A stretch of DNA of 64,000 nucleotides, taken from contig CAVSMA010000002.1 in assembly GCA_963728945.1 (NCBI GenBank), forward strand, positions 1,776,243 through 1,840,242. The letters are read 5' to 3'. The translations under genes and the position numbers were made by a program. The notes under the pieces are model-generated. The model saw nothing but the letters and a program-made list of their open reading frames with translations, did not search any database and was not told the origin of the DNA. How positions within the stretch are numbered: the stretch's first letter is position 1; every line of letters starts with the position of its first letter. Of this stretch, positions 30,680 to 39,521 are shown in pieces. This DNA comes from an uncultured Actinomycetota bacterium (GTDB lineage: Bacteria > Actinomycetota > Actinomycetes > Mycobacteriales > CADCTP01).

Positions 30680-31942
30680 CTAGCCCCGCGGGTACGCCGG
30701 GTGGGCGTGGACGAGCGCGTCCACGCCCGCGGCGATCTCGGCCGTCGCCTCCGGGTCCCGCACCGCGCGGCCGATCAGCGCCGCGATCTCCTTGGCGTCG
30801 CCCTCGGTCATGCCCTGGGTGGTGATCGCCGGGGTGCCGACCCGGATGCCGGAGGCGGTCATCGGCGGCTGGGGGTCGTACGGGATCGCGTTCTTGTTCA
30901 GCGTGATCCGGGCGGCGTCGCAGCGGGCCTCCGCCTCCTTGCCGGTCACGCCGGCGCCGCGCAGGTCGATGAGCGCCAGGTGGGTGTCGGTGCCGCCGGA
31001 GACCGGCCGCATGCCCTCGGCCGCCAGCCCCGCGGCCAGCGCCTGCGCGTTGGCGATGACCTGCCGCGCGTAGGTCTGGTACGCCGGCTGCATGGCCTCC
31101 TTGAGCGCCACCGCCTTGGCCGCCACCGAGTGCATCAGCGGGCCGCCCTGGGTGAACGGGAAGACCGCCTTGTCGATCGCCTTCGCCATGTCTTCCCGGC
31201 AGACGATCATGCCGCCGCGCGGGCCGCGCAGCACCTTGTGCGTGGTGAAGGTGACGACGTCCGCGTACGGCACCGGGGACGGGATCGCCTTGCCGGCGAC
31301 CAGGCCGATGAAGTGGGCCGCGTCGACCACGAGCTTGGCGTCGACCTCGTCGGCGATGCTGCGGAAGGCGGCGAAGTCGATCAGTCGCGGGTAGGCCGTG
31401 GCGCCGCAGATGATCATCTTCGGCCGGTGCTCCCGGGCCAGGTCGCGCACCTCGTCGTAGTCGATCAGCTCGGAGTCCTCGCGCACGCCGTAGGACACCA
31501 TCGTGAACCACTTGCCGGAGAAGTTGACCTTGGAGCCGTGCGTCAGGTGGCCGCCGTGGGGCAGCGACATCGCGAGCACCGTGTCGCCGGGCTGGCAGAT
31601 CGCCGCGTATGCCGCGAGGTTCGCGCTGGCGCCCGAGTGCGGCTGCAGGTTGGCGTGCTCGGCGCCGAACAGCTCCTTGGCCCGGGCGATGCCGATCTCC
31701 TCGGCCTGGTCGACGACCTGGCAACCACCGTAGTAACGGCGGCCCGGGTATCCCTCGGCATACTTGTTCGACAGCGTCGAGCCGAGCGCGGCCAGCACCG
31801 CGGGCGAGGTGAAGTTTTCGCTGGCGATCAGTTGCAGGCCGCTGCGCAGCCGGTCAAGCTCGCCGAGCACCACGCCGGCGATCTCGGGATCCTCCGCCTG
31901 CAGAGCATCGAAATCGGGCCCCCAGAAGGGCGTGCTGCTCAT
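30680..31942 (-). CDS. glyA: Serine hydroxymethyltransferase
   Basis: LIASENF, NKYAEGYPGRRYYGG and TTHKVLRGPRGG. Confidence 0.98.
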   Translation of the reverse strand: MSSTPFWGPDFDALQAEDPEIAGVVLGELDRLRSGLQLIASENFTSPAVLAALGSTLSNKYAEGYPGRRYYGGCQVVDQAEEIGIARAKELFGAEHANLQPHSGASANLAAYAAICQPGDTVLAMSLPHGGHLTHGSKVNFSGKWFTMVSYGVREDSELIDYDEVRDLAREHRPKMIICGATAYPRLIDFAAFRSIADEVDAKLVVDAAHFIGLVAGKAIPSPVPYADVVTFTTHKVLRGPRGGMIVCREDMAKAIDKAVFPFTQGGPLMHSVAAKAVALKEAMQPAYQTYARQVIANAQALAAGLAAEGMRPVSGGTDTHLALIDLRGAGVTGKEAEARCDAARITLNKNAIPYDPQPPMTASGIRVGTPAITTQGMTEGDAKEIAALIGRAVRDPEATAEIAAGVDALVHAHPAYPRG

Positions 31943-32637
31943 CGGACGACTCCTCGCGCGGTTCGGTGGCGGCTCCACTGTAGGGCCCGGACGACACCGG
32001 GGACCCTATCCCGGCGGCCCCGGCGAGCCGGCGCCGGTCCCGCGACGGCGTCCAGCAGGAACTCGACCCAGAGCGCCGTCTGGCCCACCATGTCCCGCTG
32101 CGCCGGGTCGTTGTCGGTCGGGTCGTCCAGGTCGTAGGCATCGGAGACGTACGGCATGCCGGGTCGCAGCCGCTGCTCGCGCAGCGTGCTGGCCCGGTCG
32201 ACCAGCGCCCGCAGCCGCTGGCCGGCGGAGCGGGCGGGCAGGTCGTCCGCCGGGATGGCCTCGGTCAGCCGGACCAGCTCGCCGAGGGTGAAGGCGCGGT
32301 GCCGGGAGGCCAGCTGGAACCGCCACACCGCCCGGACGTGCTCGGCGGTCGACCCGATGAGCAGGTCGGCGCCGGCCACCGCCTCCGGGGTCAGCCGGGT
32401 GGACCGGGCGGCGGCCACGTCGGCCGGGGGGACGCCGGCCCGGCGCAGCGCGTCGGCCGTGCCCGGCTCGACCGGCCGGTCGGGGCTGGCCCAGGTGCCG
32501 GCGCTGGCCACCACGATCTCCGCGCCGGCCGCCGCGCCCAGCCTGGCCCGCAGGCCGGCCCGCAGCAGCAGCGCCGCCGCGGGCGAACGGCAGACGTTCG
32601 CGGTGCAGACGCAGAGGACGTGTGCTGGGTCGCCCAT
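31939..32637 (-). CDS. Low-molecular-weight phosphatase / arsenate reductase family protein
   Basis: CTANVCRS P-loop, FTLGEL and DLDDP; ATGA overlap with glyA. Confidence 0.85.
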   Translation of the reverse strand: MGDPAHVLCVCTANVCRSPAAALLLRAGLRARLGAAAGAEIVVASAGTWASPDRPVEPGTADALRRAGVPPADVAAARSTRLTPEAVAGADLLIGSTAEHVRAVWRFQLASRHRAFTLGELVRLTEAIPADDLPARSAGQRLRALVDRASTLREQRLRPGMPYVSDAYDLDDPTDNDPAQRDMVGQTALWVEFLLDAVAGPAPARRGRRDRVPGVVRALQWSRHRTARGVVR

Positions 32638-32658
32638 CGGCTCAGGTTACGTCGGAAA

Positions 32659-33324
32659 TTACCTGGCCTGCCGGGGTCGGCCGCCCTCCTCCAGCTCCGG
32701 CACGACCTCCTGCAGCTGGCGCAGCGACACCTTGCCCCGCCGCAGCAGCACCGGCGTCGGCCCGGTCACGTCGACGATCGTGGACGGCGACGGGTCGATG
32801 CACGGGCCGCCGTCGAGGTAGACCGCGACCGCGTAGCCGAGCTGTTCCTGGGCGTCCTTGGCGGACAGCGGCACCCGGGTGCCGGTCCGGTTCGCGCCGG
32901 ACACGGCCAGCGGGCCGGTGCGGGCCAGCAGCTCCAGCGCGACCGGGTGCATCGGCATCCGGATCGACACGGCGCCGCGGTCGTCGCCGAGATCCCAGGC
33001 CAGCGACGGGGCGTGCTCGATCACGAGGGTCAGCGGCCCCGGCCAGAACGCCTCGACCAGCGCCCGCACCTCCGGCTGGACCAGCAGCGTCAGCCCGTCG
33101 AGGCCGGACCAGGAGCCGACCATGACCGGGATCGGCAGGTCCCGGCCGCGGCCCTTGCTGGCTGCCAGCGCGTCCACCGCGGCCGGCTGGAACGCGTCCG
33201 CGGCCAGCCCGTACGAGGCGTCCACCGGCATGACCACCAGCTCGCCGCGCCGGATCGAGTCGACCGCGGTGTCCAGCCCCTCCGCCCGCTCGACCGGATC
33301 CGCACAGTCGAAGGTCAGCGACAC
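32659..33324 (-). CDS. tsaC: Resident L-threonylcarbamoyladenylate synthase (Sua5/TsaC) with divergent active-site motifs
   Basis: KGRGRDLP, FWPGPLT, IRMP and PSTIVD present; PVDASYG replaces PTDTVYG and SGAN replaces SSAN. Confidence 0.88.
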   Translation of the reverse strand: MSLTFDCADPVERAEGLDTAVDSIRRGELVVMPVDASYGLAADAFQPAAVDALAASKGRGRDLPIPVMVGSWSGLDGLTLLVQPEVRALVEAFWPGPLTLVIEHAPSLAWDLGDDRGAVSIRMPMHPVALELLARTGPLAVSGANRTGTRVPLSAKDAQEQLGYAVAVYLDGGPCIDPSPSTIVDVTGPTPVLLRRGKVSLRQLQEVVPELEEGGRPRQAR

Positions 33325-33387
33325 GGCGTCTCCCTTGATCGTCGGGGGAAGCGGACGCCGTCCAGCCAGCTGGTCAAGGCAGACGCC

Positions 33388-34380
33388 TCAGAACGACTCG
33401 ATCGACAGGGAGGTGGTGGCCTCGGGCGGGAGGTCGGCGCCGGCGGCCAGGTAGTCCCAGGCCGCCAGGCCGATCATGGCGCCGTTGTCGGTCGACCAGC
33501 GCAGCGGCGGCAGGCTCAGCCGGACCCCGGCCTGCGCGCACAGCTCGCCGGCCGCCGCCCGCAGCTGCGGGCTGGCCGCCACCCCGCCGACGATGACCAG
33601 GCACTCGGACGGCTGCTCGGCCAGCGCCCGGCGGCACTTGGCCACCAGCACCTCGAGCACCGCGGCGACGAAGCTCGCGGCCACGTCGGCCGGCGGCGCG
33701 TCCGGGTTGGCCGCGAGGAACCGCTCGACCGCGGACTTCAGCCCGGAGAACGAGAAGTTCAGCCCGTCGGTGAGCATCGGCCGCGGGAACGGGAACACCG
33801 GGTTACCGGTCGCGGCGAGCTTGTCGACCACCGGGCCGCCGGGATAGCCGAGGTCGAGCATCCGGGCGACCTTGTCGTAGGCCTCCCCCACCGAGTCGTC
33901 CACGGTGGAGCCGAGCAGCGTGATCGTCCCGGCATCGGTCATCCGGGCCAGGAACGTGTGCCCACCGGAGACCAGCAGGATGGTCGCCGGGTAGTCGACC
34001 CGGCGCTCCTCCAGGTCAGCGCTGCGCAGGTGGCCGCGCAGGTGGTTGATGCCGAGCACCGGCACGCCCCAGCCCTGGCCGAGGGCGGCCGCGGTGCTCA
34101 CGCCGACCATCAGCGAGCCGATCAGCCCCGGACCGCGGGTCACCCCGATCGCGCGCAGCGTCCGCGGGTCGACGCCGGAGTCGTCGAGCACCATCCGTAC
34201 GGTCGGCAGGATCTTGTCCACGTGCGCCCGGGACGCCATCTCCGGGTACACGCCGCCGTACCGGTTGTGCAGCGCGACCTGGGACGCGGTCGACGCGGCG
34301 ACGACCGTGCCGTCCTTGTCGACGAGCGCGACCGAGGTGTCGTCACAGGACGTCTCGATACCGAGCACGAGTTCCGTCAT
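33388..34380 (-). CDS. tsaD: tRNA N6-adenosine threonylcarbamoyltransferase TsaD (cassette copy)
   Basis: LGIETSCDDT, PEMASRAH, GPGLIGSL, NHLRGH, LLVSGGHT, GEAYDKVAR, GYPGGP, FSFSGLK and DNGAMIG. Confidence 0.95.
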   Translation of the reverse strand: MTELVLGIETSCDDTSVALVDKDGTVVAASTASQVALHNRYGGVYPEMASRAHVDKILPTVRMVLDDSGVDPRTLRAIGVTRGPGLIGSLMVGVSTAAALGQGWGVPVLGINHLRGHLRSADLEERRVDYPATILLVSGGHTFLARMTDAGTITLLGSTVDDSVGEAYDKVARMLDLGYPGGPVVDKLAATGNPVFPFPRPMLTDGLNFSFSGLKSAVERFLAANPDAPPADVAASFVAAVLEVLVAKCRRALAEQPSECLVIVGGVAASPQLRAAAGELCAQAGVRLSLPPLRWSTDNGAMIGLAAWDYLAAGADLPPEATTSLSIESF

Positions 34381-34967
34381 GCCAGCACCTTCGCGATCTG
34401 GTCGGCGGGGACGGCGCCGACCCGCTCGACCGCCGGGTTCGGCAGGTTGCAGTTCACCAGCGTGGACGGGACGGTCGCCCGCACCCCACCGTCCAGGGCC
34501 AGGTCCGGTTCGCCGTCGAGCTGGTCGAGCACCTGCCGCATCGACTCGGGCGTCTCCTGGGCGTGCAGGTTGGCGCTGGTGACGAGCAACGGGCCGACCG
34601 CGCGCAGCACCTCGAGCAGCAGCGGGTCGTCCGGGATGCGTACGGCGATCTCGTCCCGGTCGGTCAGCCACTCCGGCGCGGTCCGCTGGTCGAGGCCCAG
34701 CGCGAGGGTGAGCGGCCCGGGCGAGAACGCGGCCAGCAGCCGCTTGGCCGGCCCGGTCACGTCGGCACCCAGCTCCTCGGCCTGGTCCGGCGACGCCACC
34801 ATGATCGGCAGGTTGCGGGACAGCGGCCGGCGCTTCATTGCGAACAGCCGCGGCAGCGCGTCCGCGCCGTGCACCGGGTGCACGGCCAGCCCATACACGG
34901 TGTCGGTCGGCAGCAGCACGATGCCGCCGCCGCACAGCGTCTCGACGACGCGCTCGGCGTCAGTCAT
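34377..34967 (-). CDS. tsaC: Second L-threonylcarbamoyladenylate synthase (TsaC/YrdC, 196 aa)
   Basis: PTDTVYGL, KRRP, PGPLT, VRIP, TSAN and PSTLV: full K-x-R...S-x-N tetrad; ATGA overlap with tsaD. Confidence 0.93.
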   Translation of the reverse strand: MTDAERVVETLCGGGIVLLPTDTVYGLAVHPVHGADALPRLFAMKRRPLSRNLPIMVASPDQAEELGADVTGPAKRLLAAFSPGPLTLALGLDQRTAPEWLTDRDEIAVRIPDDPLLLEVLRAVGPLLVTSANLHAQETPESMRQVLDQLDGEPDLALDGGVRATVPSTLVNCNLPNPAVERVGAVPADQIAKVLA

Positions 34968-35622
34968 CGGTCCCTCCGAACAGCGGGGACTGCTCGGTGA
35001 GCGGCGTCGCGGCGCGCTCCCGGGTCGGGTCGACGGTCGGGCGCCCGGCCGTCACCCAGCGCAGGACGCGTACGTCCGGGCCGGCGATGCCGGAATCCTT
35101 GACCAGCACGCCGGGCAGCAAGCCGGGAAGCAGGTCGGCGACCTCGCCGCGGAAGTCGCCGGCCAGCACGACCTCCGGCCCGCTCACCAGCCGCAGCACC
35201 TCGGCCAGCGGCCCGTGCCGGTAGGTGGCGGCGCCGGCGGCGAACCAGCCCGCGTACGCCCGGCCGGCGCCGGCGTTGCGCAGGCAGAGCACCGGCACCG
35301 CCGGGCCGGCCTGCGCGGCCATCAGCTCCAGCGAGTTCGCGGTGGCGACGCCGGCGCCGAGGGCGAACGCGAGCCCGTTGCCGTACGCCACGCCGGTGCG
35401 GACCGCGGTGAGGTTGCCCGGCCCGACGTCCACGGCGATGCGGGTGACGTCGGCGAACGACCGGCCGGCGTCCGCCAGCAGCCCGCCGACCAGCCCGGGC
35501 AGGTCCCGCTGCGCCGGCGGCACCCCGACCAGCGCGCGGCTGGCCAGCACGTCGGTGTCGTCCTCGGTGGCGAGCGCGGCGGCGAAGGTGGCGGTGGAGG
35601 TCTCCAGGGCCAGCGTGAGCAT
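34960..35622 (-). CDS. tsaB: TsaB (YeaZ)-like dimerisation subunit, divergent
   Basis: LALETST, IAVDVGPGNLTAVRTG (cf. GPGSFTGLRIG), GLAFAL and NSLE; overlaps both neighbours. Confidence 0.85.
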   Translation of the reverse strand: MLTLALETSTATFAAALATEDDTDVLASRALVGVPPAQRDLPGLVGGLLADAGRSFADVTRIAVDVGPGNLTAVRTGVAYGNGLAFALGAGVATANSLELMAAQAGPAVPVLCLRNAGAGRAYAGWFAAGAATYRHGPLAEVLRLVSGPEVVLAGDFRGEVADLLPGLLPGVLVKDSGIAGPDVRVLRWVTAGRPTVDPTRERAATPLTEQSPLFGGTDD

Positions 35623-36113
35623 CAGGCGGCCTCGGCCAGCAGCGCGGTCTCGATCGCCTCCGGCACGCCGGACCAGCGGGCGCCGTGTCCGGTGATCGTG
35701 ATCGTCCGCTGCTGCTCGTCGTCCGGATCGGCGGTCAGCGTGACCGCGAGGTGCTCGGGCAGCTCGCTTTCGACCAGCCCGCCCCACTCGACCAGCGTCA
35801 CCGACTCGGCCAGGTGCTCCGCCAGGCCGAGGTCGCGGAACTCGGCCACGCCGGTCAGCCGGTAGGTGTCGATGTGCAGCACCGGCACCCGGCCGCCGGC
35901 GTAGAACTGGGCCAGCATGAACGTCGGGCTGGTCACCTGGTCGGCCGAGCCGAGCGCGGCCGCCGCCCCCGCCACGAACGTGGTCTTGCCGGCGGCCAGC
36001 TCGCCGTGCAGCAGGACGACGTCTCCGGCCCGGAGCTGCCCGGCGACCGCGGCCGCGACGGCGGCAGTGCGCGCTGGTGACTCCGCGCCCACGCGGATGC
36101 TGTCAGTAGTCAT
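35622..36113 (-). CDS. tsaE: TsaE (YjeE) ATPase
   Basis: LHGELAAGKTT, VTSPTF, HIDTYRL and LVEWG; TGATG overlap with tsaB. Confidence 0.93.
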   Translation of the reverse strand: MTTDSIRVGAESPARTAAVAAAVAGQLRAGDVVLLHGELAAGKTTFVAGAAAALGSADQVTSPTFMLAQFYAGGRVPVLHIDTYRLTGVAEFRDLGLAEHLAESVTLVEWGGLVESELPEHLAVTLTADPDDEQQRTITITGHGARWSGVPEAIETALLAEAA

Positions 36114-36144
36114 TTCCCGGCTCTCGCTGCGTTCCGAAGGTCCG

Positions 36145-36164
36145 AGGATACGACCAGGTCTCGA
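36145..36164 (-). promoter_or_regulatory. Candidate tsaE promoter: TCGAGA-N8-TATCCT
   Basis: TANNNT -10 ~32 nt upstream of the tsaE ATG, with a TCGAG element 8 nt upstream (SARP-like spacing); no clear second repeat. Confidence 0.3.
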
Positions 36165-36261
36165 AACGGTTGCCCTAAGGGGCACTTCTGGCCCCGGCAC
36201 CAACTTATCGGCCTTCCGGAGCGTCCCACTGTCGACGGATTTTCTCGGGTTGGGGAGAGTC

Positions 36262-36990
36262 ATGACCGGATCCGTACGGGTCGGGGTGCTCGGGCCGCTG
36301 TCCGTGGAGGTCGATGGCCGGGCGCACGAGGCGCCGCGCGCCGAGGTGGTCCGAGGACTGCTCGGCGTGCTGCTGCTGGCCGGCCGGGAGCCGCTGTCCG
36401 TGGAGCGGCTCATCCCGTTGGTGTGGGACGACCGGGCCGGGCACACCCGGCCCGCGTCGGTGCACGTCGCGGTCACGAGACTGCGCGGCTGGCTGGACGA
36501 GGCCGGGCTGGCCGCCGAGCTGCGCCGGGAGGGCTGCGGCTACCGGCTGGCGCACGAGTTCGACCTCGACCTCGACCGGGTCAGCGAGCACGGTACGGCC
36601 GAGGAGCCGGCGGCCGACCGGTGCCTGCGGCTGGCGGCCGCGCTCGCCCGCTACCGCGGGCCGGTGCTGGCCGACGTGGTCCGGCTCGGCCGGTCCGATC
36701 CGCTGGTGATCGGGGCCGAGCGGCTGGTGCTGCGGCGCTGCCTGGAGCTGGCCGACGTGGCCGAGGCGACCGGGCGGCCGGAGCTCGGCGTCGGGCCGCT
36801 GGAGACCTACGCGTCGTGTGACCCGTACGAGGAGATGGTGCAGGCGCGGCTGGTCGAGCTGCTCGCCGAGGCCGGGCGCCCGGAGACGGCCCGGCGGCGA
36901 TACGAGCAGGCCAGGGCGCTGCTGGCGGCGGAGCTCGGCGTCCCGCCCTGCCCGCGGCTGCGCCGGGCCGGCGGCAAGGTTGCCGCCTAG
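36262..36990 (+). CDS. Small SARP/AfsR-family transcriptional activator (winged HTH + BTAD)
   Basis: VGVLGPLSV, LLGVLLL, LIPLVW, VHVAVTRLR, GYRL, ALARYRGPVLAD, DPYEE and LAAELGVPP. Confidence 0.88.
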   Translation: MTGSVRVGVLGPLSVEVDGRAHEAPRAEVVRGLLGVLLLAGREPLSVERLIPLVWDDRAGHTRPASVHVAVTRLRGWLDEAGLAAELRREGCGYRLAHEFDLDLDRVSEHGTAEEPAADRCLRLAAALARYRGPVLADVVRLGRSDPLVIGAERLVLRRCLELADVAEATGRPELGVGPLETYASCDPYEEMVQARLVELLAEAGRPETARRRYEQARALLAAELGVPPCPRLRRAGGKVAA

Positions 36991-37844
36991 GTCACCCCTA
37001 CCGGCCGCCGCCCGGGCCGGTCCGCCGGCCGCCGCGCGGTGGTGAAGCGCGGCCGGCCGGCCAGGTCGGGGTGGTCACGCACCTCGGCCCAGTGCCGGAA
37101 CACCGCCGGCACCGACTCGCCCTGCACGTCCGCGTGCTCGACCGCGACCAGTCCGCCGGGCTTGAGCAGCCGGGCCGCGGCCCGCTCGACCGCCCGCACG
37201 GCGACCAGCCCGTCCTCGCCGCCCCACAGCGCCGCCGGCGGGTCGTGCTCGGCCACCTCGCGCTCGATCCGCGCCCCGACCGGAATGTACGGCGGGTTCG
37301 CGGTGACCAGGTCGACCGTGCCGGCCAGGTCGGCGAGCAGGGTGGGGTCGGCCACGTCGCCCCGGTGCAGCGCGACCGGCAGGCCGGTCGCCGCCACGTT
37401 GCGGGCCGCCCAGGCCAGCGCGTGCTCCTCCAACTCGGCCGCGTGCACGGTGACGTCGGCCGCCTCGTCGGCGAGGGCGAGCGCGATCGCGGCCGAGCCC
37501 GCGCACAGGTCGACGACCACGTCACCGGGCCGGAGCCGGGCCAGCGCCCAGTCGACCAGCACCTCGGTCTCCGGCCGGGGCACGAACACGCCGGGGCCGA
37601 CGGCGAGGTCGAGCCGCCGGAACCCGGCCACCCCGGTCAGGTGCTGCAGCGGCACCCTGGCCGCCCGCTGCTCGACCAGCTCGGCGTAGCGGCCGGCGGC
37701 CTCGGCCGGCAGCCGGTCCAGGAGCACCAGCCGGGACCGGGACAGCCCGAGCGCGTGCGCGGCCAGCTCCTCGGCGTCGTGCCGGGGGCTGGCCACCCCC
37801 GCGGCGGCCAGCGTGGCCGCCGCCGCCTCAATCTCCGGCAGCAC
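36987..37844 (-). CDS. prmC: Release factor glutamine methyltransferase
   Basis: [21 protein letters not shown] and NPPY. Confidence 0.95.
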
Positions 37845-38895
37845 CAAGCAACGCTTCCGTGTCGGCCTTCTGCAGGGCCGCGATGACGTCGTCGAGGTTG
37901 CCGTCGAGCACCTGGTCGAGGTTGTAGGCCTTGTAGCCGACCCGGTGATCGGAGATCCGGTTCTCCGGGAAGTTGTACGTGCGGACCCGCTCGCTGCGGT
38001 CGACCGTGCGGACCTGGGAGCGGCGGGCGTCGGACGCCTCCTTGTCCGCCTCCTCCTGCGCCAGCGCGAGCAGCCGGGCGCGCAGCACCCGCAGGCCGGC
38101 CTCCCGGTTCTGCAGCTGGCTCTTCTCGTTCTGCATCGACACGACGGTGCCGGTCGGGACGTGGGTGATCCGGACCGCCGAGTCGGTGGTGTTGACGCTC
38201 TGCCCGCCGGGCCCGGACGAACGGTAGACGTCGATGCGCAGGTCGGCCGGGTCGATCTGGACGTCGACCTCCTCCGCCTCGGGCAGCACGAGCACGCCCG
38301 CGGCGCTGGTGTGGATGCGCCCCTGCGACTCGGTCGCCGGCACCCGCTGCACCCGGTGCACACCGCCCTCGTACTTGAGCTGGCGCCACACACCGGCGTC
38401 CGACCGGCCGCGGACCGCCACCGTCACGTCCTTGTAGCCGCCGAGGTCGGACTGCTCGGCGTCGAGGATCTCGGTCTTCCAGCCCTGCCGCTCGGCGTGG
38501 CGCAGGTACATCCGGAGCAGGTCGCCGGCGAACAGCGCCGACTCCTCGCCGCCCTCGCCGGCCTTGATCTGCAGGATCACGTCCTTGCCGTCGTTGGGGT
38601 CGCGCGGCACCAGCAGCTCGCGCAGCTTGTCCTGCAGCGCGCCCTCGCGGGTGGCCAGCTCGGTCGCCTCCGCGGCGAACGACTGGTCCTCGCCGGCCAG
38701 CTCGCGGGCCGTGGCCAGGTCGCCCTGGGTGGTCTCGAGCTGGTGCGCGGTCTCCGCGATCCGGGACAGCTCCGCGTACCGGCGGCCGAGCCGGCGGGCC
38801 AGCGCCTGGTCGGCGTGCACGGACGGGTCGGCGAGCTTGCGCTCCAGCTCGGCGTGCTCGGCCAGCAGCGCGGGCAGGCTCTCCGGGGTGGTCAT
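37828..38895 (-). CDS. prfA: Peptide chain release factor 1
   Basis: [26 protein letters not shown] and RTYNFPENR. Confidence 0.98.
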
Positions 38896-38914
38896 CGTGG
38901 TCTCCTGACAACGA

Positions 38915-38947
38915 ACGACGCCCACCCCGCGATGGGGTGGGCGTCGT
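38915..38947 (-). terminator. Intrinsic-terminator-like hairpin after rpmE
   Basis: 14-bp perfect stem ACGACGCCCACCCC/GGGGTGGGCGTCGT with 5-nt loop. Confidence 0.75.
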
Positions 38948-38955
38948 GGGAGGCG

Positions 38956-39177
38956 CTACTTGCCGGCGCGCTCGCGCTTGCCGTACCGCTGCTCGAACCG
39001 GGCGACGCGGCCGCCGGTGTCGAGGATCTTCTGCTTGCCGGTGTAGAACGGGTGGCACTGCGAGCACACGTCGGCGTGGATCACGCCGTTCGGCGCGGTG
39101 CTGCGGGTCTGGAACGTGTTCCCGCAGGAGCAGGTCACCGTCGTCTCGACGTAGTCAGGGTGGATTCCGGGCTTCAC
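38956..39177 (-). CDS. rpmE: 50S ribosomal protein L31 (Zn-binding, type A)
   Basis: [23 protein letters not shown] and GGRVARF. Confidence 0.97.
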
Positions 39178-39202
39178 GAATGGGTCCTCTCGTTGGCGGC
39201 CG

Positions 39203-39358
39203 CCGGGTCGCACCCCTGGAGCCTGCCCCCGTCGGTGCGTGTGCCTTGGGGGGCTGGCCCCCGCTGGCGCGTGTGCCTTGGGGGCTGGCCCCCCCGCTGG
39301 CGCGCGCGCCTTGGGGGGTTAACGGGGGGCTGGCCCCCCGTTGGTGCGTGAACCGGAG
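39203..39358 (-). ncRNA. L31 ribosomal-protein leader-like structure with repeat-expanded loop
   Basis: CCGGTTCACGCACC ... GGTGCGACCCGG arms resemble the actinobacterial rpmE leader; ~130 nt of G/C-run repeats between them. Confidence 0.5.
39237..39342. repeat. Imperfect ~32-bp tandem repeats (GCGTGTGCCTTGGGGG..CTGGCCCCC..GCTGG) plus G-run hairpin
   Basis: Units start at ~39237, 39269 and 39302. Confidence 0.8.
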
Positions 39359-39402
39359 CCGAGGTCGTGACCAGTGTGCCAGACCGGCACACCGACGTTC
39401 TC

Positions 39403-39428
39403 AACGGCGGCGGGCAGGATGGCATTCC
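39403..39428 (-). promoter_or_regulatory. SigR/SigH-type promoter GGAAT-N18-GTT upstream of rpmE
   Basis: Minus strand reads GGAAT-gccatcctgcccgccgcc-GTT; a second TGG-CACACT -10-like element lies at 39373-39381. Confidence 0.7.
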
Positions 39429-39521
39429 CAACCGGCACCCGCCGGCGACGGCCGTTCTGACCGGCGCCGACGGGTCCTGAACCGGATGGGTCCGCCGCCT
39501 TCGGCGGGCGGGGCCCCCGGC

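Follow-up and report, generated by a model that had tools for sequence, protein, structure and literature searches.

We analyzed a 64,000-nt stretch of contig CAVSMA010000002.1 from assembly GCA_963728945.1 of a soil actinobacterium (the window, whose positions serve as coordinates throughout). A horizontally spread operon within it, tsaE-tsaB-tsaC-tsaD, has very probably replaced the whole native pathway for N6-threonylcarbamoyladenosine (t6A), a modification of tRNA. This xenologous replacement would leave the operon as the sole working machinery for t6A at position 37 of tRNA. This modification is one of the few truly universal ones in tRNA, and the bacterial four-protein machinery behind it is usually treated as vertically inherited. 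We call the operon the EBCD cassette, a self-contained unit whose horizontal spread appears to span Actinomycetota, Alphaproteobacteria, and Bacteroidota. Judged by its family, the cassette TsaC would convert threonine, bicarbonate, and ATP to threonylcarbamoyl-AMP. [quoted passage not shown] We infer the following direction and order of events. The ancestor of one subclade of the genus would have taken up the cassette from another actinomycete lineage. The landing site would have been in the prfA-prmC-tsaC-glyA neighborhood, between a resident gene for a Streptomyces antibiotic regulatory protein (SARP) and the native tsaC. Afterwards the native tsaE, tsaB, and tsaD would have been deleted from the alr locus, with rimI left behind, and the native tsaC (here the resident tsaC) would have lost the serine of its active-site tetrad and remained under purifying selection.

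The cassette tsaE, tsaB, and tsaD are the only copies in the genome and are neither extra nor backup genes. In the assembly to which the window belongs (5.35 Mb in 6 contigs, 90.65% complete), the only matches to PF00814 were the tsaD and tsaB of the window, the only match to PF02367 was its tsaE, and the only matches to PF01300 were its two tsaC genes. We also searched the genome for the canonical alr locus, a check that the earlier note on this DNA (made from the window's sequence alone) had proposed. In a relative from the same genus (G002), this locus consists of alr, a hydrolase gene, tsaE, a lipoprotein gene on the opposite strand, tsaB, rimI, and tsaD; tsaE and tsaD are also found at the alr-linked locus in a second relative (G005). 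The matching native locus of the cassette-bearing genome lies on another contig (C4:834001-842000). It still holds alr, the hydrolase gene, a uracil-DNA glycosylase gene, the lipoprotein gene, and a GNAT acetyltransferase gene (rimI), and tsaE, tsaB, and tsaD are missing from it. Compared with G002, it consists of collinear DNA blocks of 75 to 85% identity interrupted by three gaps. At the first gap, tsaD and an adjoining 263-amino-acid open reading frame (ORF) are gone and the flanks directly abut. At the second, tsaB is gone and a tandem repeat is now in its place. At the third, tsaE is gone and the flanks again directly abut. The cassette is without rimI because the native locus kept it.

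Two further features were seen. The tandem repeat (C4:836637-836856) is GC rich, comprises 4.7 copies of a 47-nt unit, and sits between rimI and the lipoprotein gene, at the place of tsaB in G002. The canonical TsaD of G007, a cassette-free member of the genus, matches at C6:775154-776120 as two pieces (residues 3 to 147 and 153 to 316), which suggests a frameshift or an assembly error.

The TsaD of the cassette does not belong to the vertical lineage of its host. We compared TsaD in 13 genomes of the genus, divided into group A, which bears the cassette, and group B, which is cassette free. All 8 group A genomes have a cassette-type TsaD at 88 to 100% identity and no other TsaD. The TsaD of the 5 group B genomes is ~47 to 49% identical to that of the cassette, a distance equal to that of TsaD proteins from the order's other families, whereas the flanking genes are 76 to 91% identical between the two groups. 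In an order-wide sample, 390 of 401 genomes matched (a tally that includes six unpublished genomes), and none outside group A exceeded 53% among the matches listed, the other matches being weaker. A search of 5.8 billion proteins returned many TsaD sequences at 70 to 78% identity, labeled Labedaea, Actinomycetospora, Micromonosporaceae, and others. Where the four genes occur in this order in other members of the Actinomycetota, in Alphaproteobacteria, or in Bacteroidota, TsaD is 56 to 78% identical to that of the cassette.

We then placed these proteins in trees. The FastTree phylogeny held 141 distinct TsaD sequences from 173 matches, after sequences that were shorter than 280 amino acids or contained stops had been dropped and duplicates merged; one row came from an unpublished genome (G022). 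The IQ-TREE phylogeny held 59 rows chosen by hand out of that set. The cassette-type TsaD proteins of three phyla formed one clade, with a support of 100 in the Shimodaira-Hasegawa approximate likelihood ratio test (SH-aLRT) in IQ-TREE, and the canonical actinobacterial TsaD proteins, including those of group B, formed a separate clade (SH-aLRT, 99); FastTree agreed on both. Canonical TsaD proteins from the Rhodobacteraceae and Spirosomaceae families fell into their own clades. An approximately unbiased (AU) test rejected placement of the genus's cassette TsaD inside the canonical actinobacterial clade (difference in log likelihood, 57.9; P = 0.0037). In a tree built from prfA, prmC, the phosphatase-like gene, and glyA, four group A genomes formed one clade within the genus (SH-aLRT, 99), which points to a single uptake in the ancestor of the cassette-bearing subclade. 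The proposal of the earlier note that the system was acquired is thus supported by the trees and the AU test, and xenologous replacement is the one role among those it listed that the sole copies, the trees, and the deletion scars back.

A simple relocation of the native genes, followed by fast divergence without any horizontal transfer, is hardly credible. It would agree with one set per genome and with a GC content equal to that of the flanks, and the earlier note had named it as the outcome to expect if these were the only copies and they grouped with vertically inherited orthologues. They are the only copies, but they do not group vertically: relocation is effectively refuted by the TsaD trees and by the AU test, which rejects a vertical placement. 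It also conflicts with a TsaD closer to those of other families than to the canonical TsaD of its own genus amid well-conserved flanks, and with the retention of rimI at the old locus while its slot is taken by a tsaC from a different lineage.

The cassette and the loss of native genes recur far outside the genus. A scan of one genome per species with TsaD gave 80 loci, onto which we mapped the window proteins with tblastn. At 59 of these, TsaD was at least 55% identical to that of the cassette (31 in Actinomycetota, 21 in Pseudomonadota, and 7 in Bacteroidota). Among these 59, tsaC lay directly upstream of tsaD at 54 and the complete E-B-C-D order was detected at 43; at the remaining 16, the set was cut by a contig end, the E-B and C-D pairs lay apart, or a member was undetected by tblastn. 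TsaD was below 55% at the other 21 loci, and only one of them (in a Caulobacterales bin, at 50%) had tsaC upstream of tsaD. Two of the 80 loci came from the window's genus; they are apparent duplicates of two group A assemblies and were not counted as extra genomes. Nine of ten other cassette-bearing genomes checked, including a complete Actinomycetospora genome and a complete 8.2-Mb Runella chromosome, have the cassette TsaD/TsaB pair only. The exception is Actinomadura scrupuli, which has a canonical pair in addition. Five carriers were checked for TsaE, and in each the single above-threshold TsaE is inside the cassette. In two of five carriers, both alphaproteobacteria (G406 and G408), the cassette TsaC is the sole Sua5/YrdC protein. 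There the cassette TsaC and TsaD are sole copies and the cassette makes up the entire pathway; it must therefore supply universal t6A. For one alphaproteobacterial carrier, matches came from 38 of the 41 genomes of its family, with the cassette type in the carrier only and the other 37 at 42 to 49% identity; for the Runella carrier, 39 of the 41 genomes of its family matched and 2 had the cassette type.

The canonical TsaD of Actinomadura scrupuli (G404:C1:279364-280218) has the look of a decaying gene product: its conserved motifs are altered (MSDEHS, DEAVGEVFAK, and GFPEGA) and its branch is long. As for the surroundings of the cassette, it lies ~5.5 kb from prfA-prmC in three Rhodobacteraceae bins (L102, L104, and L110). 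In many actinomycetes it lies between tsaC and glyA in the order prfA-prmC-tsaC-cassette-glyA, and one bin (L119) has the order of the window, prfA-prmC-cassette-tsaC, without a SARP gene.

These copy numbers also bear on a role that the earlier note had put forward, an additional t6A-like module that is switched on by its own SARP and serves as an inducible backup or gives resistance to an inhibitor of the t6A pathway. We consider this highly improbable. The cassette is acquired and does adjoin a SARP gene, and Actinomadura scrupuli carries a canonical set as well as the cassette. However, the native genes of the window's genome have been deleted and no second tsaE, tsaB, or tsaD is present in it, so that the copy counts contradict the backup form; 9 of the 10 other carriers checked have the cassette alone; and the SARP gene appears to be older than the cassette at this site and does not travel with it.

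The proteins of the cassette have the features expected of t6A enzymes. The earlier note had called the motifs of the four intact, and all four proteins pass the NCBIfam equivalog cutoffs: TsaE scored 94.2 for TIGR00150 (cutoff, 60.1), TsaB 80.1 for TIGR03725 (69.3), the cassette TsaC 139.4 for TIGR00057 (123.2), and TsaD 369.6 for TIGR03723 (296.1). A TsaD enzyme is expected to have a metal-binding HxxxH motif and the Asp of a DNGAM motif. In the cassette TsaD, these motifs read INHLRGHL and TDNGAMI, line up with those of E. coli TsaD (4ydu), and are identical in cassette copies of the three phyla. The Walker A motif (GxxGxGKT), SPTF, HxDxYR, and EW of TsaE align with B. subtilis TsaE (5np9), and the PTDTVYG, KxR (KRR), and SAN motifs of the cassette TsaC align with Sua5 (2eqa and 6f89). 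The cassette TsaC has the full KRSN tetrad, which, according to passages in PMC4615747 and PMC10321239, defines active TsaC/Sua5 and separates it from YciO. As the sole TsaD of the genome, the cassette TsaD probably forms t6A together with TsaB and TsaE. The cassette shares the four protein families, the motifs, and the equivalog scores with the bacterial systems of TsaC and TsaB-TsaD-TsaE from E. coli, B. subtilis, and T. maritima (4ydu, 5np9, and 6n9a). It differs from them in that its four genes form one translationally coupled operon and that its TsaD belongs to the three-phylum clade rather than to the vertical lineage of the host.

The gene order invites comparison with the alr-tsaE-tsaB-rimI-tsaD(-groESL1) arrangement, an operon from alr to groEL1 that part of PMC5335608 describes in M. 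tuberculosis. The order tsaE-tsaB-X-tsaD is common to both, but X in the cassette is tsaC rather than rimI and the neighbor is prmC rather than alr. The placement of the cassette tsaC in the slot between tsaB and tsaD that rimI holds in the canonical operon, as the earlier note had it, was confirmed. The cassette is thus not a canonical alr-linked operon, since it lies beside prmC, has tsaC for rimI, and encodes a TsaD outside the canonical clade.

It is very unlikely that the cassette makes a variant modification, with another amino acid or target, instead of standard t6A. A cassette with a TsaC of its own that differs from the native one, a deeply divergent EBCD TsaD clade, and a resident tsaC retained under purifying selection would all be compatible with such a role. 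Against this, the four proteins exceed cutoffs set for the standard enzymes and keep canonical catalytic motifs, and the two alphaproteobacteria that depend on the cassette TsaC and TsaD must obtain universal t6A from them.

The resident tsaC beside prmC is the only native member of the pathway left in the genome, and its active site is altered. It shares ~35% identity with the cassette tsaC, and the two therefore represent a native gene and a xenologue, not a recent duplication. The earlier note had spoken of a duplicated tsaC; there are indeed two tsaC genes, but they are only distantly alike and the resident copy lacks the KRSN serine. Its tetrad reads KRGN, with a Gly opposite the SAN serine of Sua5 (6f89), and it has PVDASYG where the family has PTDTVYG; it still scores above the TIGR00057 cutoff. 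The distinct cassette TsaC sequences have KRSN throughout (61 of 61). Among resident copies, it is present in every cassette-free relative that figures among the best 30 loci (22 of 22, with ten more matching genomes beyond; the unpublished G022 is included) and in none of the 8 group A genomes, seven of which have KRGN and one KRAN. It was found in only 1 of 23 distinct resident copies from other cassette-bearing actinomycete loci, the other 22 being variously substituted. The median ratio of nonsynonymous to synonymous substitution rates (dN/dS) was ~0.35 for the resident tsaC and 0.31 for prmC in a crude Nei-Gojobori (NG86) estimate from 10 pairs of 5 genomes, which suggests that the resident tsaC remains under purifying selection. 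The gene next to prmC that is named tsaC by its position is probably not the active enzyme in carrier genomes, and its annotation there calls for caution.

We also considered whether the resident tsaC had arrived with the cassette. This was ruled out: it is 76% identical to the G002 copy and 56 to 59% identical to Actinomycetospora copies. The resident TsaC of carriers resembles YciO, which PMC4615747 describes as a paralogue of TsaC that lacks the KRSN tetrad, in being a conserved member of the Sua5/YrdC family in which the full tetrad is missing. It differs from YciO in that its position and its similarity to the G002 protein make it the orthologue of the true prmC-linked TsaC and probably no member of the YciO lineage. 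Between prmC and tsaC, two cassette-free genomes of the genus, G008 (L176 2891-3565) and G013 (L175 11718-12437), carry a Sua5/YrdC gene of a third kind. This gene diverges from tsaC, encodes a KRSN-type tetrad (TSLN), and is 31 to 38% identical to the cassette TsaC.

Several points weigh against a replacement by a foreign operon. The GC content of the cassette is the same as that of its flanks, and there is no foreign signature in its composition. The branch of the EBCD clade is long, at 1.2 changes per site, and the group submitted to the AU test was named only after the tree had been seen. The donor is another such point: the sister relation to Actinomycetospora has an SH-aLRT support of only 87. 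Many carriers are metagenome bins, in which misbinning is possible, but the complete Runella and Actinomycetospora genomes show the same pattern. A second set could sit in the unassembled 9% of the genome; the native locus has been emptied, and a hidden canonical set is therefore unlikely. Production of t6A by the cassette would follow from the families of its proteins and from the absence of another set, and the presumed inactivity of the KRGN-type TsaC would follow from its tetrad.

The regulator gene that diverges from tsaE is conserved among the group A genomes and is not part of the mobile unit. SARPs such as ActII-ORF4, DnrI, and AfsR have an N-terminal winged helix and a BTAD domain; at target promoters they bind direct heptamer repeats with a spacing of ~11 nt, and they control specialized-metabolism clusters. 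The earlier note had described the regulator as a winged-helix and BTAD protein. Its BTAD domain is clear (cutoff, 22.1 bits), but the Trans_reg_C match of 23.7 bits is under the cutoff of 26.2, and the matches to NCBIfam SARP models are weak. The regulator is like the three known SARPs in that it is small, combines a putative winged helix with BTAD, and is divergent from the neighboring operon. It differs from them in that its neighbors are housekeeping translation genes and no biosynthetic cluster, that its winged-helix match is below the cutoff, and that only short CGAGG-like units, and no clear TCGAGXX-type repeats, were seen. The gene is present in all 8 group A genomes at 84 to 100% identity (84 to 96% in the 7 others), always divergent from tsaE across a gap of 128 to 158 bp, and its dN/dS of ~0.25 (crude NG86) suggests purifying selection.

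The earlier note regarded the SARP as the cassette's own activator and proposed a survey of genomes for tsaE-B-C-D next to BTAD genes. We found a SARP beside the cassette at 2 of the 80 loci, both of the window's genus, and no SARP-like match within ~9 kb of the cassette at any of the 78 loci outside the genus. Moreover, a SARP homologue of 57% identity occupies this site in the cassette-free G002, where it diverges from tsaC. The idea of an activator belonging to the cassette is therefore not supported. In further cassette-free members of the genus, the interval between prmC and tsaC holds other genes or is empty: there is a PNPOx-like gene in G007, the third YrdC-like gene in G008, and in G013 the third YrdC-like gene followed by a 674-amino-acid SARP that includes an NB-ARC domain. 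Insertion of the cassette between an already resident SARP gene and tsaC is the most economical reading. The link between the two would then be a local accident of insertion, and it may have had regulatory consequences.

One such consequence would be that the SARP activates the divergent tsaE promoter, so that the t6A operon and the downstream tsaC, phosphatase-like gene, and glyA became SARP dependent when the cassette landed. We hold this to be possible but rather unlikely. The divergent pair occurs with similar spacing in all 8 group A genomes, the SARP appears to be under purifying selection, and the intergenic region contains long blocks that the cassette-bearing subclade has conserved. 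A scan of 33200 to 37100 for terminators and sigma-70-like promoters gave no matches, and the lack of a sigma-70-like promoter is a further hint. The region contains two CGAGG-like units 11 nt apart (36143 to 36149 and 36154 to 36160), and the gap between SARP and tsaC in G002 likewise contains GTTGTCA and GTTCTCA 11 nt apart, but these repeats are short and were picked by eye; a repeat finder returned only trivial 6-mers from the intergenic region. An alignment of the tsaE-SARP gap of the window with the tsaC-SARP gap of G002 gave no convincing homology. The 78 loci outside the genus do without a SARP, the other cassette-free genomes of the genus differ at the site, and SARPs usually govern specialized metabolism, whereas the neighbors of this one are housekeeping genes. 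Other copies of the intergenic region, which might have marked a SARP regulon, were found neither elsewhere in the genome nor in the cassette loci outside the genus. The predicted RNA fold of the tsaE leader had a z-score of -0.34 and was not structured.

A broader proposal concerns why the replacement recurs. The EBCD cassette might repeatedly oust native t6A genes in the three phyla through some advantage, such as insensitivity to a toxin, an antibiotic, or a phage factor directed against canonical TsaC or TsaBDE. In the window's genus, it might have been wired through the SARP to a developmental or specialized-metabolism signal, and the displaced TsaC might have been recycled as a noncatalytic YciO-like protein. 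We regard this combination as quite unlikely and offer it as a conjecture.

Replacement of the whole pathway has a partial precedent. Passages in PMC10321239 describe horizontal transfer within the TsaC/Sua5 family with loss of the endogenous copy, and state that two variants rarely coexist. The cassette matches this in the arrival of a xenologue and the loss of endogenous function. It differs in that the transfer described concerns tsaC/sua5 alone, whereas here tsaC moves with tsaE, tsaB, and tsaD and the endogenous tsaC is kept with a broken tetrad. The words "operon," "gene cluster," and "horizontal" are absent from a review of t6A enzymes (PMC9654439), and our literature search found no paper describing the EBCD operon, its displacement pattern, or a SARP with tsaD, although supplementary tables may hold relevant entries. 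The whole t6A pathway thus behaves as a transferable operon whose arrival has been followed by replacement of native genes in unrelated lineages. Intermediate stages can be seen, namely, both sets together with an apparently decaying native TsaD, clean deletion scars, and a native TsaC with a broken active site. The carriers offer a natural experiment on the swapping of co-adapted essential complexes, and the fate of the resident tsaC suggests a possible route to YciO-like noncatalytic paralogues.

The anatomy of the locus, as the earlier note had given it, was confirmed in all its coordinates and junctions, in the 148-bp gap, and in the shared CTAG. Read along the minus strand, the order is prfA, prmC, tsaE, tsaB, cassette tsaC, tsaD, resident tsaC, the phosphatase-like gene, and glyA (Table 1). 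The tsaE/tsaB junction is a TGATG with a 1-nt overlap, tsaB and the cassette tsaC overlap by 8 nt, and the cassette tsaC and tsaD overlap at an ATGA. A spacer of 63 nt separates tsaD from the resident tsaC, and the CTAG at 36987 to 36990 is common to the stops of the SARP gene and prmC. A plot of GC by codon position and the ORF listing back these reading frames. The native flanks are well conserved: prmC is 81 to 85% identical in the cassette-free genomes of the genus, and the synteny of the phosphatase-like gene and glyA is kept in all relatives mapped.

Table 1. Genes and intergenic region of the cassette locus, in window positions
Feature	Position	Strand	Profile match	Remark
prfA	37828-38925	minus		
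prmC	36987-37844	minus	TIGR03534, 224.5 bits	native upstream flank
SARP-type regulator	36262-36990	plus	BTAD, 58.4 bits	242 amino acids
tsaE-SARP intergenic region	36114-36261			divergent, 148 bp
tsaE	35622-36113	minus	PF02367, 110.9 bits	163 amino acids; ATPase subunit; first gene of the operon
tsaB	34960-35622	minus	TIGR03725, PF00814	220 amino acids; TsaD-like partner subunit
cassette tsaC	34377-34967	minus	TIGR00057, PF01300	196 amino acids; predicted single-domain threonylcarbamoyl-AMP synthase
tsaD	33388-34380	minus	TIGR03723, PF00814	330 amino acids; predicted catalytic transferase; cross-phylum EBCD clade
resident tsaC	32659-33324	minus	PF01300; TIGR00057, 162.7 bits	221 amino acids; prmC linked; intact reading frame
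phosphatase-like gene	31939-32637	minus	PF01451	low-molecular-weight phosphotyrosine phosphatase-like; native downstream flank
glyA	30680-31978	minus	PF00464, 509 bits	serine hydroxymethyltransferase; native downstream flank

With the putative starts of prmC and glyA as called, prfA and prmC overlap by 17 nt (37828 to 37844) and the phosphatase-like gene and glyA by 40 nt (31939 to 31978). An Rfam scan of 32000 to 39500 gave no match at E values up to 1. Contigs from four rhizosphere metatranscriptome runs match 32500 to 38000 at 95 to 99% identity. Single contigs among these span tsaB-tsaE-SARP and tsaD-tsaC; as assembled contigs, they show only that close relatives were present. DNA contigs from soil, root, and rhizosphere metagenomes contain 57 to 63% of the words sampled from the same interval.

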